Source of the DNA: a virus
Taxonomy: Duplodnaviria > Caudoviricetes
Reading direction: 5' to 3' (one strand)
Virus record (IMG/VR): IMGVR_UViG_3300024999_000117
Coordinates: 1-59,177 of that record
DNA: 59,177 nucleotides
This document shows positions 6,328 through 36,810 of the stretch, piece after piece (the first letter of the stretch is position 1; every line of letters starts with the position of its first letter). The notes under the pieces are model-generated. The model was not told the DNA's origin and searched no databases. It saw only the letters and a list, made by a program, of their open reading frames with translations. The position numbers and the translations under genes are program-made.

Positions 6328-7287
6328 CTATGACAGTAAATCATCTATTTCTTTTTTAATCTCCTCTACAGCAATATCTAAATTGCTAACCGATTGATTG
6401 AAATATGATTCTTTTAACTCAATACCGACAAATTTTCTACCTAATCCTAAGGTTGGATAACCCTCGCTACCGATACCAGCAAACGGGCTACAAACGATAT
6501 CTCCAGGGTTAGACCACAATTTAACTGCCCTCTCCACAACGTCAAGTTGCAACGGGCAAATATGCTTTTCGTCCTGGTCATCACGGGCCAGTTTGCAGTT
6601 CAGTACGTTCATTTGGTTTATATCAAACCATACCGCGATTGACGGAAAGTTCTTAATAAAATCCTTAGTAACGTTTATATCCTTATCGTCGAACCAAAGA
6701 GGAGAAGCGTAATTCTGCCAATCACTGAGTGGAAAAGTTTCCTCAGTATGAGTGACCGGCTCAGGGTCTACGTAGTCATCTGCCCATTTCCTAAAAAGCA
6801 ACAAGTAATCTGGCAGGCCTGTCCTACTATAGCAGCTATCCTTCCTGAGCTGTTTATACAGTAGGCCGTGGCTTTTTGTCCTCTGCATTTCTGTAACTGG
6901 ACTTTTCCAAATCAGCACTTCCGCATGGTAGGTAAAACCGTGCTTTTGATGTAACCGGATAATCTCACCCCGGAAGTCCCTAAGTCCTGCCTTGCCATCC
7001 CTACCCTTGTAGTTAACCAGTTGCTTACAGTGGACTGCTGCAAGCCGGCCAGGAACCAAAGTCCTGTATGTTTCGCCTACCAGATAATTATAGTGTTTAA
7101 AGAACTCTTCGTCGTTCTTGCTGTTACCCATGTCTGCAATACTACTACTGTAGATATATAAACTACTGAAAGGTGGTGAGTATAAATGTAAGTGGACACT
7201 ATCGCTTGGTAACCCTTTCAGCACTTCACACGAATCACCATTATACATAGTGTAGAAATCTGTTATTTTTTGGTCTAATACTTTCAC
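6328..7287 (-). CDS. N4/N6 (beta-class) DNA methyltransferase
   Basis: SPPF catalytic motif, HICPLQ, SPFAGIGSEG SAM motif, GIELK; GTG start at 7287 overlaps the upstream stop. Confidence 0.85.
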   Translation of the reverse strand: MKVLDQKITDFYTMYNGDSCEVLKGLPSDSVHLHLYSPPFSSLYIYSSSIADMGNSKNDEEFFKHYNYLVGETYRTLVPGRLAAVHCKQLVNYKGRDGKAGLRDFRGEIIRLHQKHGFTYHAEVLIWKSPVTEMQRTKSHGLLYKQLRKDSCYSRTGLPDYLLLFRKWADDYVDPEPVTHTEETFPLSDWQNYASPLWFDDKDINVTKDFIKNFPSIAVWFDINQMNVLNCKLARDDQDEKHICPLQLDVVERAVKLWSNPGDIVCSPFAGIGSEGYPTLGLGRKFVGIELKESYFNQSVSNLDIAVEEIKKEIDDLLS

Positions 7288-8654
7288 GTGACACCCCCAA
7301 TTAACCACTCGGGTAGTAGCATTTTTAAAGTTGGGCAATAGTCAAGTCTGTGTTTTTTGTCCTGCATAAGAGCGTGGTTTTTCAGCATCCCACCAACCAT
7401 ACCCTTTTTCATTTCCTCAAATAAAGTTTCTTTGGTCCGGACGATATCAAGGATCTGCTTTTCTGTTTCACCAATAACTATGTGGCAGTTAACCACTTTG
7501 TCCTGACCAAAACGCCAAAACCTTCTAGTCGCCTGGTAGAAAGATTCATAGCTAAAACTTAACCCGCAAAATACAACATTACGGCAGTTCTGAAAATTTA
7601 ACCCAAAACCGAATATTGAAGGTTTGCTAATTAACACTCTTATTTTCCCAAACCTGAAATCCTTAGCTGCCGTTTCTTTTTTAATCGTGCTGTCACTGCC
7701 GCGAACGTCTACAGCATCAGGAATGGTTTTTTTCAGAGCGTCGGCCTCATAGTTTGTATCACACCAGATTGTATATTGTTCATCTGTCCGACTAACTATC
7801 TCCGCGCACTTAGCTACCCTATCGAGTAAAGTTTGCCGCTTCTCTCTGTGGTAGGTAGTAGCATTTAGCTTTGTCAGTTGGGACGGTTCAGCTATAGGTA
7901 AAATCTCTTCGATAATATTGAGTGGAGGTAAAGTATATCCCTCGTCTGAATAGCCCAGGTCACTCGGCCTGGATATACTGACAGCCCAATCTGATACCCA
8001 GTTCCAAAAGTCGTCTACAGCATGGCCTTTGAGCTTGTACTTACCCATGTTCATTGTATCGTTTATAAACCATACCGCCAGGGCCTCATGGCTTTCCATC
8101 ACATTTAAGAAAGCCGCATGATTCAATATTTCCATGTGGTCATTAGGCGAAGGTGTGGCTGTACAAGCCAACTTAAACTCAGTATGTTTAAAGGCTCTAA
8201 TAATCTGTTGTTTAATTTTCCCGCTGTAGGATTTCAGTATTGACGATTCATCTAACACAACACCGGCAAACTGGTCAGGATCGAACTTATGCAACATCTC
8301 GTAATTCGCTATGTTGACACCTGGTCTTACATCTGCTTGTTCCCGGCATATAGTTGTCTCAATCCCAAACTTTACACCTTCGTCGTGGGTCTGCTGTGCT
8401 ACAGACAGTGGTGCTAGAACCAGTACATCACCAAAAGTATCTTTACACACTTGGTCTCCCCATTCAAGCTGCATAGCGGTTTTACCAAGTCCGCAATCAG
8501 CGAAAACAGCAGCCTTTCCTTTCCCAATTGCCCATTTCACAATATCCTTTTGAAAAGGGAATAGTTTAGGATTAATGTCTTCCGGATAAATATTAAAACC
8601 TTTGTTCTGTACCAATATCTTTTTGCTTTCAAGAAAAGCCTCGTAATCAGTCAA
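7284..8654 (-). CDS. SF2 helicase-like protein coupled to the methyltransferase
   Basis: DCGLGKT, LDESS, TATP, GFGLNFQ and RRFWRFGQ motifs. Confidence 0.85.
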   Translation of the reverse strand: MTDYEAFLESKKILVQNKGFNIYPEDINPKLFPFQKDIVKWAIGKGKAAVFADCGLGKTAMQLEWGDQVCKDTFGDVLVLAPLSVAQQTHDEGVKFGIETTICREQADVRPGVNIANYEMLHKFDPDQFAGVVLDESSILKSYSGKIKQQIIRAFKHTEFKLACTATPSPNDHMEILNHAAFLNVMESHEALAVWFINDTMNMGKYKLKGHAVDDFWNWVSDWAVSISRPSDLGYSDEGYTLPPLNIIEEILPIAEPSQLTKLNATTYHREKRQTLLDRVAKCAEIVSRTDEQYTIWCDTNYEADALKKTIPDAVDVRGSDSTIKKETAAKDFRFGKIRVLISKPSIFGFGLNFQNCRNVVFCGLSFSYESFYQATRRFWRFGQDKVVNCHIVIGETEKQILDIVRTKETLFEEMKKGMVGGMLKNHALMQDKKHRLDYCPTLKMLLPEWLIGGVT

Positions 8655-9454: not shown

Positions 9455-11212
9455 TTATACAACGTTTCTAACATCTGAGCATAACTCCGGTAAATTTGCC
9501 CCAACAAGGTGCTCGGCTAACTGCGGTGGTACGGCATTTCCGCATCTAGCTACTTGGTTAGCTTTAGAAAATTTATTACCCTCCGCGTCACGGTCGATAA
9601 TATAAGTCTCTGGAAATCCTTGCGCCGCGAAAAGCTCGTGCGGCTCCAGCATCCTCATTCCGATATCAACTATTTGGTATTCCTGTCCTTGAACAGTTAC
9701 CAGTCCAAACCTGTGTTTTGTCGTAATAGTGTGAAGTGGCTCAGTAAGTACCTGCCCTGTATCTGCCCCATAGTATTTCAGCAGGAACGCCCTAACTTCT
9801 CCCATATGGGTACCACCAGCGGAAACCGTGTGAAGTGGCTCCTTAACTGGTTGACCTATATTCATACCAGGACCGGTACCGCGGAATTTAATTAGGTGAC
9901 TGGTTACAAGAGCAAAACGGTTAGACGTGTCAACTGTTTTTATTGGTTCGTCAGGCAGTTGCCCTCTGACTCCAGTTCCAGGCGTTTCACCGTGATACTT
10001 CGAGAGAAAAGCGGTTACCAGAGCGTTGTGGTCAGTGGTCGTAACTGTGTGTATCGGCTCCCCTAAGCTACTACCAGGACCTGTATAATTGCCGCCGTAG
10101 TGTTTAGCTAAAAAAGCTGTAACTAACTGTGATTTGCCCATGCCTCCAGCTGTGATTGTCCCCAGCGGGTCAGTTACGCTGTGACCAACGCTTTGCCCGA
10201 ATTGACGGGCTATCACAGGAGTAATCAGTAAATGCTCTGCCTTTGTCGTGACTGTGGTCAATGGCTGTTCTACCTGGTACTGCATCCGATCACCGCCAAA
10301 ACCTGTCTGGCCAATTCGCACTATAAACGGCTTGGGATTATCTATAACAAACTTCTGGATACCCCTGGCAATACGCCGCATAGTGTTCTCAGCCAGTGGC
10401 CTTTTTCGCTCAAAAATACTCGGGCAGGGTAAGGACCAGTCAATAATCTCGGCAGCCGTCCTCCAAGGCAGAAGTTTACCAGATTTCACCTCTGCGCTCT
10501 CTGGATTGCCGTGTGTTGGCTTTGGCCAAACAATCGGCCTGCCGTCGCATCGAGCAATTAGGAAAAACCTCTTTCGGATAGTAGGCGCCCCATAATCACA
10601 AGCCCGTAACTCTTTATGCTCTACCTGATAACCTTGCCGCTTAAGCGCATTGATGAAAGAATTAAACGTCCGGCCTTTTTGTTTCGGATCTGGGATAAGT
10701 ATGCTTTGGTCGGGCGGAACAACTTCTCCTGATTCGGATACGATGATTTTGTCATCCTCGTCTTCATCTTCAGAACGTATGAGCTTTAACATTCGTCCTG
10801 TTTTTAGATCTGTCTTTGCAATTAGTGGTCCCCATGTTTTGAATTCCTCGACATTTTCGAGAATAATCACTCGGGGTCGGACGGTGGCTGCCCATCTGAC
10901 AGCTACCCATGCAAGCCCTCGGATATGCTTCTCAACCGGCTTGCCACCTTTGGCCTTTGAAAAATGTTTACAGTCCGGACTGAACCAACATAACGCAACT
11001 GGCCTGCCTTTCGTAGCTTTTCTTGGGTCTACATCCCAAACAGATTCACAAAAATGCTCGGTGTCAGGATGATTTACCTTGTGCATGGCAATAGCTACAG
11101 GATCATGGTTTATGGCTATGTCTACCGACATACCTATTGCCAGTTCAATTCCTGTCGATGCCCCGCCACCTCCAGCGAAGTTGTCCACAATAATCTCTCT
11201 AATTCTTATCAC
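9455..11212 (-). CDS. C5-cytosine DNA methyltransferase with repeated variable region
   Basis: Motif I FAGGGG, catalytic SPDC, ENV, RKR, QGFP and GNAV motifs. Confidence 0.92.
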   Translation of the reverse strand: MIRIREIIVDNFAGGGGASTGIELAIGMSVDIAINHDPVAIAMHKVNHPDTEHFCESVWDVDPRKATKGRPVALCWFSPDCKHFSKAKGGKPVEKHIRGLAWVAVRWAATVRPRVIILENVEEFKTWGPLIAKTDLKTGRMLKLIRSEDEDEDDKIIVSESGEVVPPDQSILIPDPKQKGRTFNSFINALKRQGYQVEHKELRACDYGAPTIRKRFFLIARCDGRPIVWPKPTHGNPESAEVKSGKLLPWRTAAEIIDWSLPCPSIFERKRPLAENTMRRIARGIQKFVIDNPKPFIVRIGQTGFGGDRMQYQVEQPLTTVTTKAEHLLITPVIARQFGQSVGHSVTDPLGTITAGGMGKSQLVTAFLAKHYGGNYTGPGSSLGEPIHTVTTTDHNALVTAFLSKYHGETPGTGVRGQLPDEPIKTVDTSNRFALVTSHLIKFRGTGPGMNIGQPVKEPLHTVSAGGTHMGEVRAFLLKYYGADTGQVLTEPLHTITTKHRFGLVTVQGQEYQIVDIGMRMLEPHELFAAQGFPETYIIDRDAEGNKFSKANQVARCGNAVPPQLAEHLVGANLPELCSDVRNVV

Positions 11213-11336: not shown

Positions 11337-13292
11337 TCAATCATCCTTTTTATAGTACATTCCTGAAAATCCGTCAGCAGGAGTAGGAAGATCTGGCGCC
11401 CACTTGATAGGCTGTCCCATGATCTCGTTAAGCTCCTTCAAGCTGCCCCAACCTACCGGCACATCACAAACTATTTCATCGTGCACATGTGCCGCAATCC
11501 GATAACCCGCAGCATCAACCCTGATAAGTGCTTCGGCAAGGCAATCTCTGGCTATTGCTTGAATTACATTTTCCACCAATTTGCCTCCGTATGTGTCAAC
11601 CTTCGACCAAACCTTTTTCACTTGATCCATGCCCCAGTAAGTCAATTTTGGTCTATTGAATCGTGTGTCGTTTTCAATTGCTGCTTTGCAATACGCCAAT
11701 CTCCTGCCCGATGGTAGCTTGATGAACAAAATACCTGACTCAAAACTAAACGTAACGCCGTACTGCAGTTGCACTACCTTCCTGTCTTTGACGGCTGATA
11801 TGGCTGCCTTCTCTACATCTTTCCACAGGCGCACTATGGCTGGATTAGCTGCCCTCCAGGTACTGACCAACTCAGGCAGTTCTTCCTCAGTCAAACCCAT
11901 TTTCAAAGCACCCATTGTTACCAATGCCCCAACGCCGCCTTGGTAGCCAAGGGCCAGCTCAGAGATCTTACCTTTTTGCCTCAAAGGGTTTGCCTTCGTG
12001 ATAGACTCCAAGGGAACCTTAAACATTTGGGAAGCAGACGCTTCATATATCTTGCCGTGTGTCCTGAACACTTTCATGCGCCACTGTTCACTGGCCAGCC
12101 AAGCTATAACTCGGGCTTCAATTGCACTGAAATCTGAAACGATAAATCGGCAACCAGCAGACGGGATGAAAGCGGTTCTAATTAGTTGGGATAAGACATT
12201 TGGGACGCTATCAAACAACATTTCCAGTATTTCATAATCACCCGATAGTAGGAAATTACGCGCCATGTCCAAGTCACGCATACTGTTTTTGGGCAAGTTC
12301 TGAAACTGAACAATTCTTCCAGCCCATCTCCAGGTTCTATTAGCACCGCAAAACTGAAACAAACCTCTGACCTTGCCATCCTCTCTGACGGCTCTTATCA
12401 TAGCGTCATATTTCTTTACTGAGGTTTTAGCCATAGTTTGACGTAATATCAGCATCTTTTTAACCGTGTTATTTTTAGTGGTTTTAATCAGTTCTGCTAC
12501 GGTTTCCTTATCCAGGCTGTCAACCTCTATACCTTCTTGTTCAAATATCCAGTTTTTAAGTTGCGCAACGCTATTCGGATTGTCTAAATCTGTCAGCTTT
12601 TTAGTTTCTTCTGTTTTTCGTGCTTGAAACTGCAGATCACACTCAATGGCGTTTTCAACTAACTTTCTGTCTATCTTAATCCCTGTATCGTTAATCTTTT
12701 GGTCTAAGCACCAGAGTTTATGTTCGTGTTCAGGAACGGGAAACTTCTCAAGTTTCTTTCTTATATCACGTTCTACAACAACGTCCTGCCTGCAGTATTC
12801 CTTGAATTGTTCCCATTTTTCCGGGCTATGTTCAGGCAGGTTCCTTGTCCTCCTACCGTTGGCTTTTGTAGGTTTGCAAGGAGTGCAGAAATATTTAATT
12901 AGCGCCTTTCCTGCCGTGTCTTTTTGCTGCTCCAAGCCCAGCACCTTAGCAACATCCTCTAACCTTCCAGGCAGCCCTAAAGTTAACGCATGAACTGCCG
13001 TACAGCGCCAAAACATAGGATCAACTGGTAACCATAGGTGTTCGTTAATACATAGCCGTTCAAAATTTGCGTTATAGGCTGTTTTGATAATGTTCGGGTC
13101 AATCAAAGCATCTGTAACATCTTTGTGTAGTGACTCGCCGCTGGCCAGGTCAACAACCTGGACTGGATCATCATCAAAAGCAAATCCGAACAAGATTATT
13201 TCAAAATCCGGCGAAGCTACGTATTTGTAGGCACCCGAGGTTTTTATATCTACACTGCTAAAAGTTTCTAAATCTATACTGAGAATAGTCAA
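11337..13292 (-). CDS. Phage DNA polymerase, family A
   Basis: Exonuclease DLET, YNANFE and YCRQD; polymerase DFSAIEAR, RQKGKISELALGY and HVHDE. Confidence 0.95.
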   Translation of the reverse strand: MTILSIDLETFSSVDIKTSGAYKYVASPDFEIILFGFAFDDDPVQVVDLASGESLHKDVTDALIDPNIIKTAYNANFERLCINEHLWLPVDPMFWRCTAVHALTLGLPGRLEDVAKVLGLEQQKDTAGKALIKYFCTPCKPTKANGRRTRNLPEHSPEKWEQFKEYCRQDVVVERDIRKKLEKFPVPEHEHKLWCLDQKINDTGIKIDRKLVENAIECDLQFQARKTEETKKLTDLDNPNSVAQLKNWIFEQEGIEVDSLDKETVAELIKTTKNNTVKKMLILRQTMAKTSVKKYDAMIRAVREDGKVRGLFQFCGANRTWRWAGRIVQFQNLPKNSMRDLDMARNFLLSGDYEILEMLFDSVPNVLSQLIRTAFIPSAGCRFIVSDFSAIEARVIAWLASEQWRMKVFRTHGKIYEASASQMFKVPLESITKANPLRQKGKISELALGYQGGVGALVTMGALKMGLTEEELPELVSTWRAANPAIVRLWKDVEKAAISAVKDRKVVQLQYGVTFSFESGILFIKLPSGRRLAYCKAAIENDTRFNRPKLTYWGMDQVKKVWSKVDTYGGKLVENVIQAIARDCLAEALIRVDAAGYRIAAHVHDEIVCDVPVGWGSLKELNEIMGQPIKWAPDLPTPADGFSGMYYKKDD

Positions 13293-14188
13293 TTGGTCAC
13301 TTCCTTTAAAGCCTGAAGGTATACGTTAATATTGTGAACGGCCCTACCCATGTTACGCTCGTTACTGCCCATCTCTCTTGTGTCTAAACCTATCGAACGG
13401 ATAACCTCACAGGCAGGGCAGTTGCATATCGGTATTTGTTCTTTAGCTAATTCTTTAACACTGTATTTTTTAATGCCGCCACCACCACTACTGAGGTCTA
13501 AAGCGTAGTAACTCGCTCCAGTAAAAGCACTAAAAAACATTGAACTTCCGTCAAAGCTGTCTATGCAGTACTGCTTATACTCCCGTACCCAACGGATTGA
13601 TGAAATACCTAAGACGTGTATTTTGAAAGGTTGCTGCTGTCTTAGTTTACATACCGCTTCTAGTACAGAATGGATATATTTTTTCGCCCCGGCTCTACCG
13701 GCCACACCACCTATGGCTAGATATTTGTAACCCATCTCTAAGAGTTCCTGAGCCGCCATAAGGCGTGTATCCAAACTATTGCCGTGTATTACACCAACCG
13801 GTATTACACCCTTAGGAACTAACTTTATAAACTCTCTCGCATTGTCTAAAGTTATATTGAGTCTGTACAGTTCTTCCTCTGGCGTATGGTTCCTTAAAAC
13901 CATGTGGTCAGGTGAAGCAACCATATCACCAGGGCAGGCTAGTTTCCTATACATAGCAGCGCACCCTGCCGGACCCCATTTCGGTTCCGGTAGATGCTTG
14001 TAACTCCAGGCACCGCAATCAAAAAATATTTGTTTCGCATGAGGTGGCAGCGGTAAATTTTTACTATAGATAAGGGATGTTAAAAACTGCTCCGGAAAAG
14101 GATTAATATATTTCCAAATTGGTTCTTTAACCCCGTTTATTTTTAGATGATCCCTATTCCCGATAACGCAAAAGAATCTAGGTTTCAT
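13289..14188 (-). CDS. TGT-fold (queuine tRNA-ribosyltransferase/DpdA-like) base-exchange enzyme
   Basis: FDCGAWSY, PDH, VIHG, AIGG, HVLG, DSFDGSS and CNCPAC...HN Zn site in TGT order. Confidence 0.75.
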   Translation of the reverse strand: MKPRFFCVIGNRDHLKINGVKEPIWKYINPFPEQFLTSLIYSKNLPLPPHAKQIFFDCGAWSYKHLPEPKWGPAGCAAMYRKLACPGDMVASPDHMVLRNHTPEEELYRLNITLDNAREFIKLVPKGVIPVGVIHGNSLDTRLMAAQELLEMGYKYLAIGGVAGRAGAKKYIHSVLEAVCKLRQQQPFKIHVLGISSIRWVREYKQYCIDSFDGSSMFFSAFTGASYYALDLSSGGGGIKKYSVKELAKEQIPICNCPACEVIRSIGLDTREMGSNERNMGRAVHNINVYLQALKEVTN

Positions 14189-15015
14189 CTCAACAGATCT
14201 TCCAATTCTCTAGCCTGCCGGTCACGCTCAACGAGTGCTTTGTACCTATCCACATCAACCTTCTGAACAATCCAGTCCTTTGCCTTGGTAGAAGTCTCAA
14301 CAAACCCGGCAACCTTAGCAACTCCGTACCCCCTCACAGTATGGCACACAACCGGGTCATCAATCTTTAGATCCAAGTCAGTGAAGAAGTCATATTTGAC
14401 TTCGTTATTTCCCGCAAAAGTGACTTGAGCTATTTTCTTAACATCGACTAATACATCGCTACCTGATAATTTCTCATTATCTCGTCTAAGTTCGTGAATA
14501 GCGGAAGTTAGTGATTTACATTTATCCTCAAAACCGCACATACTACAAGGGATGTTACAACTTAGTGCGTCCATATATTGATCTTTAATAGGACATAGTT
14601 TTAACCTGCAATTTCCTTCACAATCATCAGTATTCAGCGGATGGTTACAAAAAACTAATACAGGAGAGGAACGATCTTCTACCCCATCTAAATCCTTCTC
14701 AAACATACAATTTTGATGTTTGCAACCTTTACCATACCACTCTCTCAATTTATCAACTCCCAAACTATTAGCTAATTTAGCTAAAACATCACCGTGGCAA
14801 AGTTTTGGTTTACACCAGCATCCAAGCGTCTTTCCTTTCAAATCATGTAGATCATTCAGCAAATCCGGTCTCAACAAGATGTGTTTTTCGTACTTGCCAA
14901 TAACCTCTTGCCGGGATCCATCCCTACCAATCAGAAAAGGGTTGCCCCACTTTGATGGCCTGCCGATGTAAACATCAAACTTTTTACGTTTGCAATGAAC
15001 TACTTTAGTTTTCAA
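14185..15015 (-). CDS. DUF4326-like domain fused to Cys-rich and further domains
   Basis: VYIGRPSKWGNPF...LGCWCKP..CHGDVL N-terminus; Cys-rich middle. Confidence 0.75.
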   Translation of the reverse strand: MKTKVVHCKRKKFDVYIGRPSKWGNPFLIGRDGSRQEVIGKYEKHILLRPDLLNDLHDLKGKTLGCWCKPKLCHGDVLAKLANSLGVDKLREWYGKGCKHQNCMFEKDLDGVEDRSSPVLVFCNHPLNTDDCEGNCRLKLCPIKDQYMDALSCNIPCSMCGFEDKCKSLTSAIHELRRDNEKLSGSDVLVDVKKIAQVTFAGNNEVKYDFFTDLDLKIDDPVVCHTVRGYGVAKVAGFVETSTKAKDWIVQKVDVDRYKALVERDRQARELEDLLR

Positions 15016-25758: not shown

Positions 25759-25858
25759 TTTAAGCCTATATTTGCTTATTTTTTGTGTTTATTTTTACCA
25801 TCATCAATATATCTATTATTTGCTTAAAATTACTTTAAAAAAAGGTTGTGTTAAATTT

Positions 25859-26512
25859 ATGGACTTAGGAAGCAAAATCGATAAAATAAGAAATAACCTT
25901 AGTTATATTGATTTTTCTAAGGCCATTGAGCAAAAGACAGGGCACGAAATAAGTCCTTCAAGCCTCCATAAATACATTACGAATCAAAGGAATCCATCTT
26001 ACAAGATGCTTGAAACCATAGCATTGTATGGTGATGTACCAATAACCTTTTTCTTCGATAAAGGTAACCCTATTTACAAAAAAGTTCAGAGATTAGATAA
26101 ATTAAAACAGCTAAAGAAAGATTACAATGACCTTAAAACAATAAAGGAAATACCTATTTTAGGAGAGGTACCAGCTGGCGAACCAAACTTACATCCTGAA
26201 ATATTTGAAGGTAACTATCCTCTCCCAATGTCAATTTACAATAATGAATCATTTGCCTTGCGTATCAAAGGAGATAGTATGCTTGACGTAGGTATTGAGC
26301 ACGGTGATTTAGTATTGGTTCGTAAGCAACCTACAGCAGAAATGGGACAAACTATAATTGCAAGAATAGGTGATGAAGTAACCTGTAAACGATTTTATAT
26401 TAAAAACGGACTTCCGGTATTGGAACCAGCCAACTCAAAGTATAAAACGATAGAGCCAAGGGAATTAGAGATAGTAGGAATAGTAACAAAAATAATCAAG
26501 GAGTTGGAGTAG
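25859..26512 (+). CDS. CI/LexA-like repressor (HTH plus S24 peptidase)
   Basis: N-terminal HTH; VPAG cleavage site, GDSM serine, TCKR lysine; likely start MDLG at 25859. Confidence 0.9.
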   Translation: MDLGSKIDKIRNNLSYIDFSKAIEQKTGHEISPSSLHKYITNQRNPSYKMLETIALYGDVPITFFFDKGNPIYKKVQRLDKLKQLKKDYNDLKTIKEIPILGEVPAGEPNLHPEIFEGNYPLPMSIYNNESFALRIKGDSMLDVGIEHGDLVLVRKQPTAEMGQTIIARIGDEVTCKRFYIKNGLPVLEPANSKYKTIEPRELEIVGIVTKIIKELE

Positions 26513-26513
26513 T

Positions 26514-28121
26514 GTGTTACGGGGAGTAATTTACGCCAGGTATTCATCAGACAACCAAAGAGAAGAATCTATAGATGCCCAGGTGTATGAAATAAAAGAA
26601 TACGCCCGGGCAAATAATATTTCTATAGTAAAAATATATACTGATGAAGCCAGATCCGCTACAACCGATAATCGGCCTGGCTTTCTTAAAATGATAGACG
26701 ATGCAAATAAAGGCATATTTGAGGTTATACTAATCCATAAGTTGGACAGGTTTGCCCGGAATAGATATGACAGTGCCTTCTATAAAAGAGAATTAAAAAC
26801 GGCAGGGGTTAAGCTTATAAGCATCACCGAGAAACTTGACGATAGCCCGGAAAGTGTTATTTTGGAAAGTCTCTTAGAAGGAATGGCTGAATACTACTCC
26901 AAGAACCTGGCTAGGGAGGCCATGAAGGGGCTAAAAGAGAATGCCCGGAGCTGTAAGCATAATGGTGGTCGTCCACCCCTAGGATTGGACGTAGACCCTG
27001 CTACAAAGCAATATATTATTAGTGCTAATACTAAAGAAGTTGAAGCCGTTAAATTGATTTTTGAACTTTATGATCAAGGATTAGGTTATGGTACCCTGAT
27101 AAAGGAATTACATTTAAGGGGTTATACTACAAAGCTTGGTGGTAAATTTGCTAAAAATAGTCTATACGAACTTCTTCGTAATGAGAAATATATTGGGACA
27201 TATCTTTATAACAGAAGTGCCAGTAAATCTGACGGAAAAAGAAATAACCATAAATCAAAATCAGAGGAAGAAATTATAAAAGTTGAAAATGCCTTTCCGG
27301 CAATCATTGACAAAGACTTATTTGAGAGGGTGCAAGAAAAGATGGATACGCGTAAACATGCTAAAGCCAGGAACAAAGCAAAAGTTAATTATTTACTACA
27401 AGGCTTAGTTTATTGTAATGAATGCGAAGCTGCCATGGTAGGAAATAGCGGATCCTACAAAACAAAAACCGAAACCGTAAGATACTCTTATTATGAGTGC
27501 AATAAACGTAACCGACAAAAAGATTGTAGTAACCCACGCATTCGGAAAGAAATTCTTGAGAATATCGTATTGGACAAACTCTACCAAGAAATATTTGTTC
27601 CGGAGAGAGTTTCAATATTAGTACAAAAGATTAACGAATACAATCAAAAAACTACTACAGAAAGAAATGCAGAATTGGAATTACTTGAAACGGAGCTTAA
27701 AGAAACAAAAAAGCAAATTGATAACCTGGTGATGGCTGTAGCTAATGGAGCACCGTTTGCAAGTTTTTCAGATAAACTAAATGAACTGGAAAATAAAAAA
27801 GCCATGCTCGAAACTCGTTTAGAAGAGTCTCGAACTCTGGCTTTAAGATCATTGATTACTGAGGATATGATTATTAATTATTTAAACCAGCATCGTCAGG
27901 CCGTAGAAGACAAAGACATTGACGCTTGCAAGAAGTTCATAGGCAATTATGTAGAAAAAGTTGTTGTAAGCACTGATTTTATTGACATTCACTTCTACCT
28001 AAAATTTTTGGATATTGATGGTGGAGGCGGGGCGTACCGTTCAATATCCAAAATAAATAAAAAAGATATAAACGCAAAACCTGTAGGTGCTATTCCTACA
28101 GGTTTATTATTTCTTCAGTAA
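26514..28121 (+). CDS. Large serine recombinase (integrase)
   Basis: YARYSS catalytic serine, DRFARN, recombinase domain, CNEC...C...C Zn ribbon and coiled coil. Confidence 0.95.
   Translation: MLRGVIYARYSSDNQREESIDAQVYEIKEYARANNISIVKIYTDEARSATTDNRPGFLKMIDDANKGIFEVILIHKLDRFARNRYDSAFYKRELKTAGVKLISITEKLDDSPESVILESLLEGMAEYYSKNLAREAMKGLKENARSCKHNGGRPPLGLDVDPATKQYIISANTKEVEAVKLIFELYDQGLGYGTLIKELHLRGYTTKLGGKFAKNSLYELLRNEKYIGTYLYNRSASKSDGKRNNHKSKSEEEIIKVENAFPAIIDKDLFERVQEKMDTRKHAKARNKAKVNYLLQGLVYCNECEAAMVGNSGSYKTKTETVRYSYYECNKRNRQKDCSNPRIRKEILENIVLDKLYQEIFVPERVSILVQKINEYNQKTTTERNAELELLETELKETKKQIDNLVMAVANGAPFASFSDKLNELENKKAMLETRLEESRTLALRSLITEDMIINYLNQHRQAVEDKDIDACKKFIGNYVEKVVVSTDFIDIHFYLKFLDIDGGGGAYRSISKINKKDINAKPVGAIPTGLLFLQ
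28006..28053. other. Putative attP inside the integrase 3' end
   Basis: Perfect 13-bp inverted arms TTTTGGATATTGA / TCAATATCCAAAA around a 22-bp centre TGGTGGAGGCGGGGCGTACCGT. Confidence 0.65.
28077..28105. terminator. Bidirectional intrinsic terminator
   Basis: AAACCTGTAGG-7-CCTACAGGTTT between convergent genes. Confidence 0.7.
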
Positions 28122-28293
28122 TATAATCTGATAATTCAAGCATATTATTGATTTCTTGCTCTTCTTTTTCTATGATAGATCCCAAGTTATCCATTTCTAC
28201 TAAGCCCTTTATCCCAAGTTCAGCTGCTCTTTCCAAAATAGATTCTAATTTTTTTCTCAATAACTTGTACCTCCATAATTTGATGATGGTCAA
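28096..28293 (-). CDS. Hypothetical protein
   Basis: Short AT-rich ORF converging on the integrase. Confidence 0.4.
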   Translation of the reverse strand: MTIIKLWRYKLLRKKLESILERAAELGIKGLVEMDNLGSIIEKEEQEINNMLELSDYITEEIINL

Positions 28294-28676
28294 GAAACGA
28301 TAAATGAATTTATGTTGCTATTTAGATAGATTAAATCATTAATTGTATATAAATATACCCTTTATTTAAAGATATTTAAACTAATATAAAGTTTTAATAT
28401 CTTTTTTGATCTTGTTGACACTTGCAATAATAAATCACCTCGGTTTTTTAATTACTTAACTATGAATATTTTAACACACTTTAATTCTATAGTAGGGGGC
28501 TTTTGTAAATATTTTAGATAAAATAAAATGATTGATAAAGATATTATAAATTTAACTTATACGCCAATCAACTACCTAGCTATATAAAAGCTAGGTGTGT
28601 CATAGGAAGGTATTGTAATAACATACATAGAAAAATAAAAACTTAAAGTTATTTTAGTGTATACCAAGGAGCCTAT

Positions 28677-28907
28677 ATGAAAATCAGAATCAAACAATAT
28701 CGATTAAAAAGAATACCTAAAATTCTACAAGATGAATTAGCAGAACACATAAACATGAAACCTGCACAAATATCACAAATGGAAAATGGTCATTATATAC
28801 CATCATTAAAAGTTGCATTGACTGTGGCTAAATCTTTTTCCGATTTATTAGGGGAACGTGTTCATGTAGATGATCTTTGGATTATTGAAAAAAATGATTT
28901 AAAATAA
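28677..28907 (+). CDS. XRE-family HTH protein
   Basis: QDELAEHI....QISQMENG..PSL; AGGAG RBS. Confidence 0.85.
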   Translation: MKIRIKQYRLKRIPKILQDELAEHINMKPAQISQMENGHYIPSLKVALTVAKSFSDLLGERVHVDDLWIIEKNDLK

Positions 28908-29016
28908 TAAGATTTTTAAAAAACTATCATAGACAGCTATGTTTTTAAACATATTCTACAATTATTTTCTTTTTCCTCTAATAATATTTCGACTTATTAT
29001 GACATTAAAATAATAC

Positions 29017-29028
29017 AAACATATGTTC
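29017..29028. promoter_or_regulatory. Possible LexA (Cheo/SOS) box
   Basis: AAAC-ATAT-GTTC, one mismatch to GAAC-N4-GTTC. Confidence 0.4.
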
Positions 29029-29155
29029 AGTATTTTAAGGATACTACATTATATAATATTGTAAGTTAATTAGCAACTTTTGTTAGTGGAAGTATGTTAA
29101 TTAATAGTATATCGTTTTGTAAATGTAAATACAATAATACCTACCCTAATACATA

Positions 29156-29187
29156 AATACCCCATCCTCTTTTAAGAATGGGGTATT
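29156..29187. terminator. Intrinsic terminator ending the ATPase operon
   Basis: AATACCCCAT...ATGGGGTATT stem. Confidence 0.6.
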
Positions 29188-29240
29188 AAGCAGTTTTTAT
29201 TTTTTCTTCTTAGCCTCCCTTAACCTCCGCCTGCCTTTGC

Positions 29241-29702
29241 TTATTTATTGAACCATCTCTCGTCAACTTTAGTTTTAGTTGCCTGTTTTTTCATGTCCTT
29301 TAGAAATTTTTCGTATTTTTCTACCGTATTCATACTATCCATGCGGCTATCAAAAACGGCTTTTTCTTCAACATCTAAACTCTCATACAATTCATACATA
29401 GAGATAGAATCTTCGGTGTGCCTTCCCATGCCTGACTCTTCCCAGTTCAATACCTCGCCGTCTTTTCTGAATACCACAACTCCGTCAAGCCAATCCATTG
29501 TATGCTCGCTTGGGTTTTCCTGTATATCAACATAGGTATAGATCATACTTTTGTTGGTTTCGTCTATAATTTCATAATATCCGTCATTTCTATAAACTAC
29601 AGATTTGTTATTGTCGCTAATATTATTTAAGCCAGACATCATCATAATGCCAGCCATGATTAAACCAACTATCTTTGTCGCGGCGGGTACTTGTATGAGC
29701 AT
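29241..29702 (-). CDS. Membrane-anchored or secreted protein
   Basis: N-terminal hydrophobic segment; acidic soluble domain. Confidence 0.7.
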   Translation of the reverse strand: MLIQVPAATKIVGLIMAGIMMMSGLNNISDNNKSVVYRNDGYYEIIDETNKSMIYTYVDIQENPSEHTMDWLDGVVVFRKDGEVLNWEESGMGRHTEDSISMYELYESLDVEEKAVFDSRMDSMNTVEKYEKFLKDMKKQATKTKVDERWFNK

Positions 29703-29705
29703 AAT

Positions 29706-32396
29706 CTAATCCCCCTTTTTGCTTTTCTTTTGGGCTTTGGCCTCAGCCTGCCGTTCCTCCCGCCAAGCCTCATCCTGCAAGGTAATTCTACGTTTCCCCT
29801 GAATGTACTCAGTAACCTCTTTCCAGTGCCGGCCAAACTGCTTAGAACATTCTGCCCGCCGATAGCTCCTATCCTTAACCGGCTTTGGCGGGGCCGTCAT
29901 GTGGCAGATAAAAGCAGGTAGTGAATCAGTACCAGGCAACTCCATCTTGCAAGCAGCAACCCAACGCTTTGGCAACTGCTCATAAAGACTGCGGGCTTCC
30001 AACGGAGTTAATTTCTCTGCATGGTCAGTAAAGGTTTTCTGTAGCTCCGTCTTAAAAAAGTTAAAGAACGGCCCCCCGGCGTAAATGCCTGCTTTATACT
30101 TACCGAACTGCTCTGCGCTGTGAGCAAGGAAAATCATCTTATTTCTGTACTTCCGGGCCTCCACCCCGATCTCGCCGTCCAACAACGGGCCCGTGCCTTC
30201 AAGACAGTTGTGGGGCTCATCAATGATTGTGTAGAACGGTTTGCGATCTTTCTGTGCCGTGTCCAGACGCGATAATGTTGCCAGCCAGATTTTTGCCATC
30301 AAGAATGAAGCTACCCGATTAACTCCGTCTTTGCCTAACTCTGCTTTGGGGATGCGTAACCCGACGAAATACCCTCCTTCGTCCATCATCTGCCTAAAAT
30401 CCAAAACAGGCTTGCCGTCGGCTTTCAGCTTCTCCTGCTGCAGAAAAATGTTAGCCAGCGTCCTTTTACCAGCCAACAAATTCAGCCGGTCAAGGATGGG
30501 CTGCACTAAAGTTTTATCCGTACCTTTCACGGCTTTGGCTTGTAACTCTCTAAGCACGTCAACAACTTCCGACTGAGACTGGATAACCGGGTCCTGCAAT
30601 AACTCCTCTCTGTAAACTGGGGACGATAAAGCCAGCACCACGTCTAGTAACCCTCGGCGCGGATCTGTGAGTACACCTTTGCCGACAGGACTAAGAAAAT
30701 ACTCCATGCGGTCTGAAAACTCGCTGGAAGCTAACTGGTTTATAAAAGTGTGCAGGTAGTCAGTCATTTTTTCCGCTGCGTCTAAAGCGTCTAATTCATC
30801 CCCAGCGCTCCCCCGGATAGCTATATCAGTCAAGGTTAAAGGTATTGGCCAGTGCTTGTCTCCAAAGTCTAGGTCAAGTATTTTTGAATCAGGTATATCG
30901 CTTGACAAGCTATCCCGGACAGCATCAATAGCGGCACCATCGGCCATATCAAAGAAAAATACCGTCCGCCCGTTTTTAACACCGTTGACAGCAAGCACAA
31001 TCCCCCTCCCTGTCTTACCGGAGCCCATATTGCCATAATTGATCTCTCCTTTACACTCAATGTCGTGGTCGTGAATAGGTAATTTAGCTTCCCGGGTGAC
31101 TCCACGGTCAGTAACCCTGCCCAAGGGAATACCGGTATTGCCGAAAAGCTCAGCCGGCAGAGTGACTTCCTGGAGTTTAATCCCCTGCACCTGCGGGTAA
31201 TCCTCTTGCAGTTCCCGGCCCGGAATCTGAATTAACTTCCCGGCCTCGGCAGTGCTTAAAATACTGTAGTTAAATTTCAGTTTGGGCAGGCGTTTAGTCA
31301 GCATAGATTCGATAACTGCGGCCTTCTTCTTCCGATTCTTAATCTCCCGGGTCTCAAATTCGTTATCAGCGGCCAAGTCAGCAAAAGCACTGGCAAGCGT
31401 CCTGGCTGTCGATTCCCTGCGGCCCTGATCGTCAGACTGAGAGATTATCCAAAGGTAAGTCCTGAGCGCACCCATGCCACCTTTGCGCTTTGTGGCGCTG
31501 GTTAGATTTTCTATAGCAAACAGTCCTGCTTCGGGGTCAACTTCCTTCTTGGCGTACCTATTTTCCTGCTTATCTGACTTGATCATGTCTCCGATACCGA
31601 CCATAACCTCCTGCATCAGCTGGCCAGTGCAGGTCAAACCTAAACGGAAATAGCCTCGAGCATCACCGTTCCTTTTTATCGGCTGTCTGCCGTTCCTGAG
31701 CATTTCCCAAGCCTCTTGGTATGTCGCGTTCCAGTCAAGCCTACCAACAGGGTCAAACAGGATAAAAACTTTTGCCTTGTCGCCTACCTCGAGAGATTTA
31801 ACACCCTGCAGGAGTGATGGCAGAGGTAAGTTGTTTTTCGCGTCGGTAAGCAACGAATACATATCATGCTTTCTTAGCACCAGTTCATAGATAACGGTCG
31901 TTTCTTTATCCCAGGCTTCGCTGTAGTCATCATCGACTGTGATAGTTGACTTATCCCAAATGCCAGACAGTCGCCGCACCCAACTATCTACCCGATCCCC
32001 CGGCACTGTTAGTAGAAAATCTATAGTGTCGGAGGCATAATCTATCTCCCAAGTGGCCCGGTCAGGTTGCCGGTACCGGAGCTTCCAACCGTCCTCAAAG
32101 TAAAACCTATCTAACGGGATTTTAAAAGCATCTGTGATAGTTTTCGCTATATCCTCGGTGTACCAGTTCCTGGCCGATGTATCCGGCCGGATGCGGATAA
32201 CTCGATGTGGTGGAGCAACGATCTGGTAGTGACTGCGGAGATTAAAACGCTGTTTTTGCTCAGTTTCGTACCATTCTGCGTCTATGTAATCCTGCTGACC
32301 ATTTTGCTGATGTCGGCAATATGGTTTATTTTGGGGCAACTGCTTACCCGGGGTAAGTGCTGGGACAGAGGGAAGCGACGGTAGATATTTTCTCAT
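29706..32396 (-). CDS. VirB4/TraG/HerA-FtsK superfamily P-loop ATPase
   Basis: Walker A GNMGSGKT, Walker B YTIIDEPH, EARKY arginine-finger-like motif, LAH. Confidence 0.8.
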   Translation of the reverse strand: MRKYLPSLPSVPALTPGKQLPQNKPYCRHQQNGQQDYIDAEWYETEQKQRFNLRSHYQIVAPPHRVIRIRPDTSARNWYTEDIAKTITDAFKIPLDRFYFEDGWKLRYRQPDRATWEIDYASDTIDFLLTVPGDRVDSWVRRLSGIWDKSTITVDDDYSEAWDKETTVIYELVLRKHDMYSLLTDAKNNLPLPSLLQGVKSLEVGDKAKVFILFDPVGRLDWNATYQEAWEMLRNGRQPIKRNGDARGYFRLGLTCTGQLMQEVMVGIGDMIKSDKQENRYAKKEVDPEAGLFAIENLTSATKRKGGMGALRTYLWIISQSDDQGRRESTARTLASAFADLAADNEFETREIKNRKKKAAVIESMLTKRLPKLKFNYSILSTAEAGKLIQIPGRELQEDYPQVQGIKLQEVTLPAELFGNTGIPLGRVTDRGVTREAKLPIHDHDIECKGEINYGNMGSGKTGRGIVLAVNGVKNGRTVFFFDMADGAAIDAVRDSLSSDIPDSKILDLDFGDKHWPIPLTLTDIAIRGSAGDELDALDAAEKMTDYLHTFINQLASSEFSDRMEYFLSPVGKGVLTDPRRGLLDVVLALSSPVYREELLQDPVIQSQSEVVDVLRELQAKAVKGTDKTLVQPILDRLNLLAGKRTLANIFLQQEKLKADGKPVLDFRQMMDEGGYFVGLRIPKAELGKDGVNRVASFLMAKIWLATLSRLDTAQKDRKPFYTIIDEPHNCLEGTGPLLDGEIGVEARKYRNKMIFLAHSAEQFGKYKAGIYAGGPFFNFFKTELQKTFTDHAEKLTPLEARSLYEQLPKRWVAACKMELPGTDSLPAFICHMTAPPKPVKDRSYRRAECSKQFGRHWKEVTEYIQGKRRITLQDEAWREERQAEAKAQKKSKKGD

Positions 32397-32500
32397 TTAA
32401 CCCTACCCCCGAATTTTCTAATAAACGGGCCAAATATAACGGTAATAAACCCGCCCAAACACATACAGATTAAACCGAAATAACATAAGTCAGCTAACAA
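32393..32500 (-). CDS. Single-TM peptide of 35 aa (MLADLCYFGLICMCLGGFITVIFGPFIRKFGGRVK), absent from ORF track
   Basis: GGAGGGG RBS, TTG start, stop overlaps the ATPase ATG. Confidence 0.55.
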   Translation of the reverse strand: MLADLCYFGLICMCLGGFITVIFGPFIRKFGGRVK

Positions 32501-32512
32501 AATTACCCCTCC

Positions 32513-32746
32513 TTAAATTGCTTTACCTAATACCTGCACCACTACAAACAACGCCACCGAAAACAGTACACCCTTCCGGGCCAGCGAAAACCCGAACATC
32601 GAGAACAGTAATGACACCATAGCACCCATCAGGCAGATCTCAAAACTGTAGTAGTAGAACGCTGTCCCGGCGGCTGCCAACGTAGCTACCCAACCGGCAG
32701 CTTTCTTTAGTCCCATGCCGACCAACCAAGCAGCTATTCCAGGCAA
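32513..32746 (-). CDS. Small multi-TM membrane protein
   Basis: Almost entirely hydrophobic, 77 aa. Confidence 0.7.
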   Translation of the reverse strand: MPGIAAWLVGMGLKKAAGWVATLAAAGTAFYYYSFEICLMGAMVSLLFSMFGFSLARKGVLFSVALFVVVQVLGKAI

Positions 32747-33316
32747 TTAAGCCACCCCCAGCAGCCCCATAGCCAACGGCATCACCGACAAGGCACCCTT
32801 GATCTGATAGAAAAAGAACGGAATGATAAACACCCCGATATAGCCAAGCATGGCATACTTGATTTTGTCCTTGCCTCCTGGATTGCCTATGATAATCTCG
32901 ATAAGCCCCCATATAGCCATACCGATTCCGACGGGGAGGGCAAGTTCCTGCAACATACTGATAACGGGCTGTAGTGCCGGTGCTATGCCCATATACGTCT
33001 TTGCTGCTACTGGTACGGCCTGAGTTGCTACGCTGTATTGCCCTGCTAATGTGCTTATCGGGGCCATGGCCAGGAGGTTTATGCCCGTTGTCAGTGGTAA
33101 TATGTGACGTTTGGCGGCCTCGCGGATACGGGCCAGTCTGTCGCGTAAAGTTTCTGTTTCTGTTTTTGGCTGTGCCGTTTCAGGTTTTTGCGGAATAGTA
33201 ACGTTTTCGGGTTCTTTGGTAACGCTTTTCCAGGAAAAAGTATCGTTTTTTATAGGCTTAGTAACGGCTGTATTATAATTTACAACACGACCATTTATTT
33301 TTACTATCATCGGCAT
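32747..33316 (-). CDS. Membrane protein with TrbC/VirB2 pilin-like C-terminal two-TM hairpin
   Basis: LQELALPVGIGMAIWGLIEIIIGNP-GKDKIKYAMLGYIGVFIIP pattern. Confidence 0.6.
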   Translation of the reverse strand: MPMIVKINGRVVNYNTAVTKPIKNDTFSWKSVTKEPENVTIPQKPETAQPKTETETLRDRLARIREAAKRHILPLTTGINLLAMAPISTLAGQYSVATQAVPVAAKTYMGIAPALQPVISMLQELALPVGIGMAIWGLIEIIIGNPGGKDKIKYAMLGYIGVFIIPFFFYQIKGALSVMPLAMGLLGVA

Positions 33317-33409
33317 TTCCCCCTTGTAGCTAATTTGATACGGTGATTAAATCTTATTCGCTACAACTTGTCCGATATAACCAATAAAAATAACCCGCTT
33401 AGCGGTAAT

Positions 33410-33814
33410 TTATTCCTCCGCCGTAACGGGTTCTAGGTAAAATAGCTCCTTGATTTTTTCAGTAGGGACTCTTAGGGATTCCAAGAGCAATAACAAAACA
33501 ACCACCGAAGGCTCACATTGTTCATTTATAACTTTACTGAGATAAACACGATTAACGCCTATTTCTTTTGCTACTTGAGTAATAGTTTTCCCGCTTGCAT
33601 CTATGGCTACCTTGACACTATTTTTTAGCATGACATTGCTTCTTTTGGTAGATATTTTTTCTTCTTGCCTCCCATACGGCTCCAACCACTCCATTATTAC
33701 CTGTCTTACAAACGAATCTTGATCAATTTTAGGGTTATGCTTTGCCGCCTTTTGATATATGGCAGCCAGTGTCTGAGCTAAGTCTTTCGGTAGTTGGATT
33801 TGCTCAAAGTTCAA
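33410..33814 (-). CDS. RHH-like plus XRE HTH regulator
   Basis: TITQVAKEIGVNRVYLSKVIN..PS; GGAGG RBS. Confidence 0.8.
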   Translation of the reverse strand: MNFEQIQLPKDLAQTLAAIYQKAAKHNPKIDQDSFVRQVIMEWLEPYGRQEEKISTKRSNVMLKNSVKVAIDASGKTITQVAKEIGVNRVYLSKVINEQCEPSVVVLLLLLESLRVPTEKIKELFYLEPVTAEE

Positions 33815-36537: not shown

Positions 36538-36810
36538 CTAATCAATATCAGGCAATTCTACAGTTTTATTCGCCAGTTCATGAAAACAATCACTAAGAAA
36601 TTGTATTTTCCCTTCACTCACGAAACTATGGCATCTTGAGCCAGAATCATGTTGATTAACTAGCATAGACGGTGAAAATGTGGGTTTTTCAAAATCACCA
36701 TTAAATGACCATCTACTGTCAAATAAATGATGTGTTTTACAGCCCGGACAAAATATCAAATACCCGCCAAACTCACCACTGGAATTATTAATAACCTCTG
36801 TTTTGGGCAT
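36538..36810 (-). CDS. DUF6527-like Cys/His protein
   Basis: CPGC..H...W.FNGD..KPTFSPS...CHSFV..G.IQFL.DC.H pattern. Confidence 0.7.
   Translation of the reverse strand: MPKTEVINNSSGEFGGYLIFCPGCKTHHLFDSRWSFNGDFEKPTFSPSMLVNQHDSGSRCHSFVSEGKIQFLSDCFHELANKTVELPDID

Follow-up and report, generated by a model that had tools for sequence, protein, structure and literature searches.

The window analysed here is the complete 59,177-nt stretch of a tailed-phage record (Duplodnaviria; Caudoviricetes; IMG/VR IMGVR_UViG_3300024999_000117). On its minus strand, at 33814–29241, it carries a compact cassette that combines a soluble ATPase with a VirB2/TrbC-like ("pilin-like") membrane protein. The ATPase is VirB4-like in both of its domains and is best named as a separate VirB4-derived family. 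We tentatively propose, with less than even confidence, that the motor and the pilin-like protein build an envelope conduit for phage DNA. Two earlier papers (PMC3357382, PMC6316719) have published both the cassette and the translocon idea, and the window holds a divergent, reduced copy of the known set; the novelty implied in an earlier note on this DNA is thus overstated. The features of the cassette are as follows (aa, amino acids; HTH, helix-turn-helix), the proteins being called by their lengths (p134, p189, p77, p35 and p153).

33410–33814, minus strand: 134-aa HTH DNA-binding protein (Pfam HTH_3; PHROG transcriptional regulators)
32747–33316, minus strand: 189-aa VirB2/TrbC-like ("pilin-like") membrane protein, with two helices and pilin matches at the level of the family
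32513–32746, minus strand: small membrane protein of 77 aa, which ends in a helical hairpin and is encoded where SPP1 has gp31.2
32393–32500, minus strand: 35-aa hydrophobic micro-ORF (open reading frame), with one helix (residues 5–23)
29706–32396, minus strand: 896-aa VirB4-type ATPase, VirB4-like in both domains, with Walker A and B motifs
29241–29702, minus strand: 153-aa N-anchored protein with a soluble C-terminal part, clade-specific
29156–29187, minus strand: 14-bp stem-loop, likely a terminator, judged by folding against shuffled sequences

The VirB4-like ATPase and its membrane partners

The ATPase opens with a disordered stretch (residues 1–51), which is followed by an N-domain (residues ∼52–405; window 31182–32243), a P-loop motor domain (∼405–850; window 29847–31184) and a charged C-terminal helix. 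The Walker A (GNMGSGKT; G455..G460-K461) and Walker B (IIDE; D726-E727) motifs, which the earlier note had already recognized, are invariant in 16 aligned homologues of 19–89% identity. PHROG 5156, a family of unknown function, matches the protein end to end (E 6e-131; positions 11–811 of 824). No curated VirB4 model matches it at E ≤ 1 in Pfam and none matches in NCBIfam, and a scan of 17 diverse family members against Pfam (E ≤ 0.01) likewise returned none of the three VirB4-type models (which we take to be CagE_TrbE_VirB, AAA_10 and P-loop_TraG). NCBIfam and PADLOC contain no match for the ATPase or for the membrane proteins of the cassette. Searches of solved structures by sequence, either with the single protein or with a 16-sequence profile, returned chance-level matches only, and the relationship to VirB4 is, therefore, visible by fold alone. 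A Pfam match to Zot (E 0.037) was set aside as a similarity confined to the P-loop.

Comparison of folds gave values for the C-domain of 24.3 with VirB4 of Thermoanaerobacter (4ag5), 23.2 with DndH-C, 23.2 with HerA and 22.8 with TrwB. These values are effectively tied and, thus, the C-domain alone cannot separate the VirB4, DndH, HerA and TrwB families. The full protein combines a C-terminal P-loop motor of the FtsK/HerA/VirB4 type, bearing Walker A and B, with an N-terminal domain whose fold is specific to VirB4. Identification as HerA or FtsK was considered and rejected, since the N-domain is of the VirB4 type. A coupling protein is excluded likewise: the N-terminal membrane anchor is missing, and the N-domain is, again, VirB4-type. 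The earlier label "VirB4/TraG-like" is, therefore, retained in its first half, for both domains, and dropped in its second half on these two grounds. Prediction of a complex between the ATPase N-domain and p77, run without controls, scored 0.00 in both runs, an outcome that speaks neither for nor against such a complex.

The pilin-like p189 consists of a variable N-terminal part followed by two helices (residues 125–143 and 152–170) joined by a charged loop (GNPGGKDKIKY). By itself it falls below the threshold of every curated pilin model, with sub-threshold Pfam matches to Maff2 (E 1.4e-3; 18.9 bits, cut-off 27) and T4SS_pilin (E 0.014; 15.9 bits, cut-off 26.6), and it matches phrog_5422 (E 2.1e-6). 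We aligned p189 with 19 proteins encoded at the same position in other loci, eight of the loci having been found by sequence and the rest by position and architecture. A variable N-terminus, two hydrophobic helices and a short charged loop between them are common to all 20 proteins; in many of them, a hydrophobic segment that closes with small residues precedes what would be the mature part. At E ≤ 0.05, T4SS_pilin is matched by 8 of the 20 (best E 1.4e-5), TrbC/VirB2 by 5 and Maff2 by 4, and no other family appears. The only Pfam matches of its family are, thus, pilin families of type IV secretion systems (T4SSs), in line with the VirB2/TrbC-like character that the earlier note had given to this two-helix protein. 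On plasmid pCLK, the gene neighbouring a homologous ATPase is annotated in RefSeq as a "TrbC/VirB2 family protein". On these resemblances, p189 is VirB2/TrbC-like.

The second membrane protein, p77, has a hydrophobic N-terminus and a helical hairpin (37–55 and 59–77) at its C-terminus, and aligns by architecture with proteins of the SPP1 gp31.2 type. No Pfam family emerged for p77 among 18 positional relatives beyond single chance-level hits. It is a candidate membrane adaptor of the ATPase, occupying the position of SPP1 gp31.2. Hydrophobic segments were located with our own Kyte–Doolittle script (19-aa window, threshold 1.6), which is crude compared with a trained predictor; it placed two helices in p189, two in p77, one in p35, one at the N-terminus of p153 and none in the ATPase.

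The five ORFs of the tight operon that the earlier note had described, and the HTH gene that precedes them, are all present at the minus-strand coordinates listed above. The p189 and p77 genes abut (0 nt), p77 and p35 are 12 nt apart, p35 overlaps the ATPase gene by 4 nt, and 3 nt separate the ATPase gene from that of p153. A purine-rich, Shine–Dalgarno-like stretch lies upstream of every start. Compared with related viral contigs, the ratio of nonsynonymous to synonymous substitution rates (dN/dS) is 0.041–0.055 for the ATPase (four comparisons), 0.113–0.116 for p189 and 0.111–0.197 for p77, values which show that all three genes are under purifying selection.

The remainder of a conjugation apparatus is missing: VirB6, VirB8, coupling protein, relaxase and hydrolase are all lacking in the window. 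Searches of the window by tblastn revealed no homologues of relaxase, actin-like or M23 proteins (best E 0.072). The Pfam matches of the neighbouring ORFs include no mating-pair-formation, coupling-protein or relaxase families, and no VirB6-like polytopic protein is encoded in the window, where the sole ORF with at least four hydrophobic segments is the tape-measure protein. The earlier statement that no relaxase or other T4SS core genes are recognizable was, therefore, correct.

Distribution, variable genes and genomic setting

Homologues of the ATPase were identified by tblastn in 127 phage records, 65 of which cover at least 80% of the query. They include SPO1 gp27.4 (E 4e-47), SPP1 gene 32 (2e-36) and ORF201 of 0305phi8-36 (3e-13), with identities of 35% to the nearest named phage and 22–25% to SPP1 and SPO1. 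Lytic carriers comprise SPO1-like phages, CP-51, SP-10, SPP1, jumbo phage G and 0305phi8-36; temperate or plasmid-like carriers comprise 0105phi7-2, phiCp-D, Basilisk and MMB025. A profile search of representative clusters retrieved 465 at E ≤ 1e-30, 3,192 at 1e-10 and 7,328 at 1e-3. Repeating the word-based homologue search from a diverse alignment brought up the close clade only, and a single-protein scan of genomes gave only three distant matches, in metagenome-assembled genomes including some of Patescibacteria type.

By name, the 127 phage records divide into Bacillus (114), Geobacillus (5), Deep-sea thermophilic phage (2), Lysinibacillus (2) and single records for Alicyclobacillus, Clostridium, Brevibacillus and Microcystis. 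The 58 plasmid records are from Clostridium (32), Bacillus (22) and, once each, Alicyclobacillus, Aneurinibacillus, Laceyella and Embleya. Bacillus, Geobacillus, Clostridium and similar genera, which we take to be endospore formers, account by the first word of the organism name for 126 of 127 phage and 57 of 58 plasmid records. The phage D6E is presumed here to infect Geobacillus. Taken together, the carriers show an accessory cassette that is kept by phages, phage-plasmids and large plasmids of endospore-forming Bacillota. For the window phage itself, two named homologues suggest a Bacillota-like host.

The arrangement that defines the cassette, with one to three small same-strand hydrophobic proteins encoded directly 5′ of the ATPase, is present in the window and recurs widely. 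At least one such protein precedes the ATPase in 12 of the 13 named phage loci (all except that of phage G), in both plasmid loci and in 10 of 11 evaluable viral contigs, a count that leaves out four contigs ending too close to the ATPase gene. The co-occurrence in other phages on which the earlier note had made its reading depend was, thus, looked for and found. In phage G, a second T4SS-type ATPase is located directly 5′ instead (L028 1198–2847; P-loop_TraG E 1.6e-15, AAA_10 E 4.7e-9). Large Clostridium plasmids (32 records; group I C. botulinum and C. sporogenes) contain a bare two-gene version, a TrbC/VirB2 protein and the ATPase; in C. botulinum pCLK (L033 8600–11400) the ATPase is 28% identical over 90% of the query.

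Several relatives carry additional genes. A Replic_Relax protein (Pfam) directly follows the ATPase in SPO1, CP-51 and Tsamsa (3 of 10 proteins scanned), an annotated partition or plasmid-segregation protein lies 5′ in SPO1, vB_BboS-125 and MMB025, and an M23 peptidase with a C-terminal anchor lies directly 5′ in vB_BboS-125, MMB025 and the Alicyclobacillus plasmid. The window cassette has none of these nickase, partition/actin-like or M23 extras. As no nickase or actin-like gene is annotated near SPP1 gene 32 either, the nickase and actin-like genes appear to be optional. In the closest relatives, unrelated small genes spanning 1.1–2.4 kb are inserted between the small membrane genes and the ATPase gene, which are contiguous in the window. 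The inserts are at 1660–4124 in contig L004, 3474–4794 in L005 and 3989–5088 in L009, the last including two opposite-strand ORFs of 110 and 136 aa. Contigs L007, L008 and L012 all end 0.9–1.4 kb upstream of the ATPase.

The genes at the two ends of the cassette, and p35 within it, are more variable. The regulator p134 contains a Cro/C1-type HTH at its C-terminus (residues ∼72–120; Pfam HTH_3, E 2.8e-7), while its first ∼45 residues show a loose alignment to the small proteins of DNA-binding type that are encoded 5′ of the cassettes of other phages (SPP1 gp31 type). Its homologues occupy the equivalent position in contigs L004, L005, L006 and L009. RHH_3 (Pfam) is matched strongly by 1 of 18 aligned upstream DNA-binding proteins, with other support scattered, and a ribbon-helix-helix character of these proteins can be considered a lead.

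The micro-ORF for p35 is served by a strong ribosome site of AAGGAGG type, and its stop codon overlaps with the start of the ATPase gene. L009 is the single relative in which this ORF was found again (phmmer E 2.3e-15; 70% identity, synonymous sites being saturated); it is absent in L010 and replaced in L004 and L005. The hidden 35-aa membrane peptide of the earlier note is, therefore, plausible but variable, and it lies outside the wider cassette.

Outside the window, a homologue of p153 directly behind the ATPase was seen in L005/L006 and L009 alone. In Pfam, PHROG, NCBIfam and PADLOC, p153 has no match that rises above noise, and the ESM Atlas gave no usable match. The protein is clade-specific and outside the wider cassette. 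The first ∼15 residues are nearly identical in the window (29241–29702, minus strand), L005 (7610–7966) and L009 (7656–8312). Beyond this anchor the proteins share 35–37% identity and differ in length (153, 118 and 218 aa, in the same order), and the family looks like a conserved anchor or signal with swappable outer domains. A tRNA gene in L005 (8139–8213), ∼170 nt 3′ of the p153 homologue, may mark a prophage end or an integration site beside the cassette.

The hairpin that closes the cassette (29187–29156) has a folding energy of −20.8 kcal/mol (z −4.56), and 0 of 200 shuffled sequences were equally stable; the terminator proposed earlier is, thus, supported by its stem, although its U-tail is poor. 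Between the HTH gene and the p189 gene, a hairpin of −5.3 kcal/mol was equalled by 25 of 200 shuffles. A terminator at this junction was rejected, its candidates (−5.3 to −2.1 kcal/mol) being no better than shuffles. A hairpin followed by a T-run 3′ of the HTH gene is kept in 4 of 4 relatives. Because the intervening hairpin is as weak as those of shuffled sequences, the HTH gene may be co-transcribed with the rest of the cassette. A scan of the region for sigma-70-type promoters gave 25 matches compared to 14.1 ± 4.1 in shuffles, a modest excess only. Inspection of the cassette region by eye revealed no convincing sporulation-type promoter.

The virus record is complete (CheckV 100%) and linear, with 59,177 bases. 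On the minus strand, the terminase and structural genes are followed by a holin (37991–37524) and an Amidase_3 endolysin (37531–36812), and the plus strand encodes a LexA-like S24 repressor and a large serine recombinase (25772–28121). Since structural, lysis, repressor and recombinase genes are all present, the phage is a temperate tailed phage, and the cassette sits in an accessory slot between its lysis and integration genes. This setting, with holin and amidase on one side and repressor and recombinase on the other, agrees with the earlier description of a reduced T4SS-like module inside a tailed phage. The G+C content of the ATPase gene is 0.49, compared to a phage average of ∼0.42. Four DNA sequencing runs of one study carry the stretch, and no RNA run is among the listed holders.

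Other neighbouring genes are recorded here for completeness. The repressor gene (25772–26512) and the recombinase gene (26514–28121) are on the same strand (plus) with a 1-nt gap between them and, therefore, look like a single transcription unit. The stretch from the recombinase to the cassette (28122–29240) is AT-rich, with a G+C content of 0.33 compared to ∼0.42 for the phage; it includes a 76-aa HTH gene (28677–28907, plus strand) and a 65-aa ORF (28293–28096, minus strand), and is likely the attachment-site and regulatory region. A DUF6527 protein (36538–36810, minus strand) is encoded directly 3′ of the endolysin gene. A TGT-like protein (Pfam TGT, E 4.8e-9) adjoins a DUF4326 protein (window 13289–14188, minus strand, and 14185–15015), and a C5 cytosine methylase and an N6/N4 methylase are encoded near the TGT-like gene (9455–11212 and 6328–7338, minus strand). 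The clustering of these TGT-like, DUF4326 and methylase genes suggests that the phage DNA may be modified, possibly with deazaguanine.

Possible roles of the cassette

In the mechanism that we favour, the small membrane proteins (p77 and perhaps p35) would serve the soluble ATPase as a docking site at the cytoplasmic side of the membrane. Driven by ATP, the VirB4-like motor would there extract pilin-like subunits from the bilayer, as proposed for the VirB4 of conjugation systems, and the extracted subunits would stack into a short tube through the membrane and the thick wall. The cargo would most likely be phage DNA, because relatives couple the core to a Replic_Relax nickase, a DNA-binding protein and positioning genes of actin or tubulin type. 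This DNA would move across a septum, from mother cell to forespore, or into a touching neighbour, and not through virions. The cassette is accessory in function and dispensable for plaque growth, and the copy in the window has no nickase of its own.

Delivery into the forespore, or across the septa of chained cells, is suggested by the carriers, nearly all of which are named after genera of spore formers. Weighing against this proposal, any restriction to spore formers would be read from host names, counted without denominators, and the Microcystis and Embleya records are outliers to it. A bolder version, in which a VirB2-like protein, a VirB4-like protein and one or two tiny membrane proteins suffice as a conduit without VirB6, VirB8 or coupling protein and give the genome a virion-independent route to the forespore or to a neighbour in the chain, seems improbable to us. 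If true, no smaller T4SS-derived machine would be known, and phages would have a new way to persist or spread.

The main alternatives give the same proteins a different task. They could act in exclusion or defence at the membrane, where membrane proteins and ATPase would block or expel incoming phage or conjugative DNA. The placement of the cassette in an accessory/lysogeny region, beside repressor and integrase, here and in several temperate relatives would suit such a role, as would its reported dispensability for lytic growth (PMC3357382, PMC6316719), the GmrSD-type gene that follows the ATPase in MMB025 and the participation of HerA-type ATPases with a similar C-domain in anti-phage systems, according to the titles of PDB entries. 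We nonetheless regard exclusion as unlikely: PADLOC matches neither the ATPase nor the membrane proteins, the N-domain is VirB4-type rather than HerA-type, and a pilin-like partner, a nickase and partition genes are not needed by known exclusion proteins. In addition, the cassette is kept in the strictly lytic SPO1, CP-51 and SPP1, and in SPP1 belongs, as reported, to the early gene set (PMC6316719). That the ATPase is instead a cytoplasmic DNA motor of HerA/FtsK type for phage replication, recombination or end processing, and the membrane genes are unrelated to it, is very unlikely; the tied C-domain values leave room for such a motor, and the VirB4-specific fold of the N-domain speaks for another family.

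Alternatively, motor and pilin-like protein could export or position p153 or an M23 peptidase and, thereby, alter the envelope before lysis or during lysogeny. T4SSs can secrete proteins, an anchored or secreted protein follows the ATPase in the window clade, TP-84 and L015, and membrane-anchored M23 peptidases lie inside the cassette in three relatives. However, conservation of the downstream protein stops at the closest clade, the Sec pathway is available to anchored proteins and makes a dedicated motor unnecessary, and the recurrent nickase and partition genes point to DNA, so that we consider export doubtful. We give hardly any credence to a decaying remnant of an integrative and conjugative element (ICE), captured by the phage and now devoid of function. 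The core is indeed incomplete compared to conjugation systems, and the G+C content of the ATPase gene is above the phage average (0.49 versus ∼0.42). Selection and distribution contradict it: dN/dS is 0.04–0.2 for the three genes, the catalytic motifs do not vary, 465 representative clusters (E ≤ 1e-30) have full-length frames, and the cassette is found in strictly lytic phages. The grouping with decayed ICE genes that the earlier note had allowed for is likewise at odds with the ATPase itself (dN/dS ∼0.05, intact motifs, and lytic SPO1, SPP1 and CP-51 among its carriers).

Few gene sets that await an explanation are as widespread as this cassette in phages of Bacillus, Geobacillus, Clostridium and related genera; lytic and temperate phages alike retain it, and yet it is dispensable in the laboratory. 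The set may represent a secretion machine cut down to its minimum, and through it phages may be linked to sporulation or to the passage of DNA from cell to cell. The window contributes a divergent, stripped-down example that helps to define the minimal core, evidence from folds for a motor that is VirB4 in both domains instead of a coupling protein, and a core under strong purifying selection without a nickase or a cytoskeletal partner. Its value lies more in the open question on the whole family, which is testable in SPP1 and SPO1 with Bacillus subtilis, than in the uncultivated phage.

Comparison with known systems

Our literature searches, which may have missed papers, found no functional study of the phage cassette. 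It is described by Pathria et al. (2012) as the "DNA translocation operon" of 0305phi8-36 (orf200–207), with a similar operon in SPO1 (PMC3357382). According to that paper, the 0305phi8-36 operon consists of genes for a "coupling ATPase" (orf201), to which SPO1 gp27.4 is related, for an MreB-like protein (orf207) and for a relaxase of MobC type; its deletion is reported to cause no growth defect, and the authors speculate on cell-to-cell propagation in biofilms (PMC3357382). The operons of 0305phi8-36 (orf200–207) and SPO1 (27.3–27.9) are similar to the window cassette in having a homologous ATPase with small hydrophobic proteins encoded directly 5′ and in being dispensable in the laboratory. 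They differ in adding a Replic_Relax/MobC-type nickase and an actin-like protein, neither of which is present in the window. The ATPase, there called a TraG-like coupling protein (PMC3357382), is placed with VirB4 by our fold comparisons.

For SPP1, Godinho et al. (2018) report that the C-terminus of gp32 resembles TrwB, VirB4 and FtsK, that the cassette genes are early and non-essential, and they state the translocon hypothesis (PMC6316719). SPP1 genes 31/31.1/31.2/32 encode, in the same order as the window, a DNA-binding-type protein, two small membrane proteins and a soluble ATPase of 800–900 aa. The two ATPases are homologous (tblastn E 2e-36; 24% identity over 85% of the query), and p189 and p77 align with proteins of the gp31.1 and gp31.2 types, respectively. 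In contrast to the early genes of the lytic SPP1, the window set belongs to a temperate phage, between its lysis and integration genes; its regulator bears an HTH domain in addition, p189 is extended by 110 aa at its N-terminus, and SPP1 has no counterpart of the 35-aa ORF or of the anchored 153-aa protein.

Among other P-loop motors, HerA, FtsK, VirD4 (TrwB) and DndH differ from the window ATPase, whose N-domain is VirB4-type and which has no VirD4/FtsK-like membrane anchor, HAS-barrel match or nuclease partner. The occurrence of a pilin and VirB4 pair in phages has become more pointed with a December 2025 preprint, which reports that the VirB2-like PrgF is essential for pCF10 conjugation and that VirB2-like proteins of most Gram-positive conjugative plasmids model as pili on VirB6 pentamers (10.64898/2025.12.18.695078). 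Phages are mentioned nowhere in the preprint text available. According to the same source, Clostridium plasmids that bear the cassette also model a separate VirB2/VirB6 system (10.64898/2025.12.18.695078), and the transfer of these plasmids cannot, therefore, be credited to the cassette. Compared to conjugative T4SSs, the window set has no VirB6, VirB8, coupling protein, relaxase or hydrolase, and resides in a tailed phage instead of a plasmid or ICE. With the VirB4 (TrwK)/VirB3/VirB2 assembly of R388 (structures 7O42 and 8RTD) and with PrgF, it nevertheless has in common the two-domain fold of the motor, a small two-helix partner with a charged loop, and small membrane proteins encoded just before the motor.

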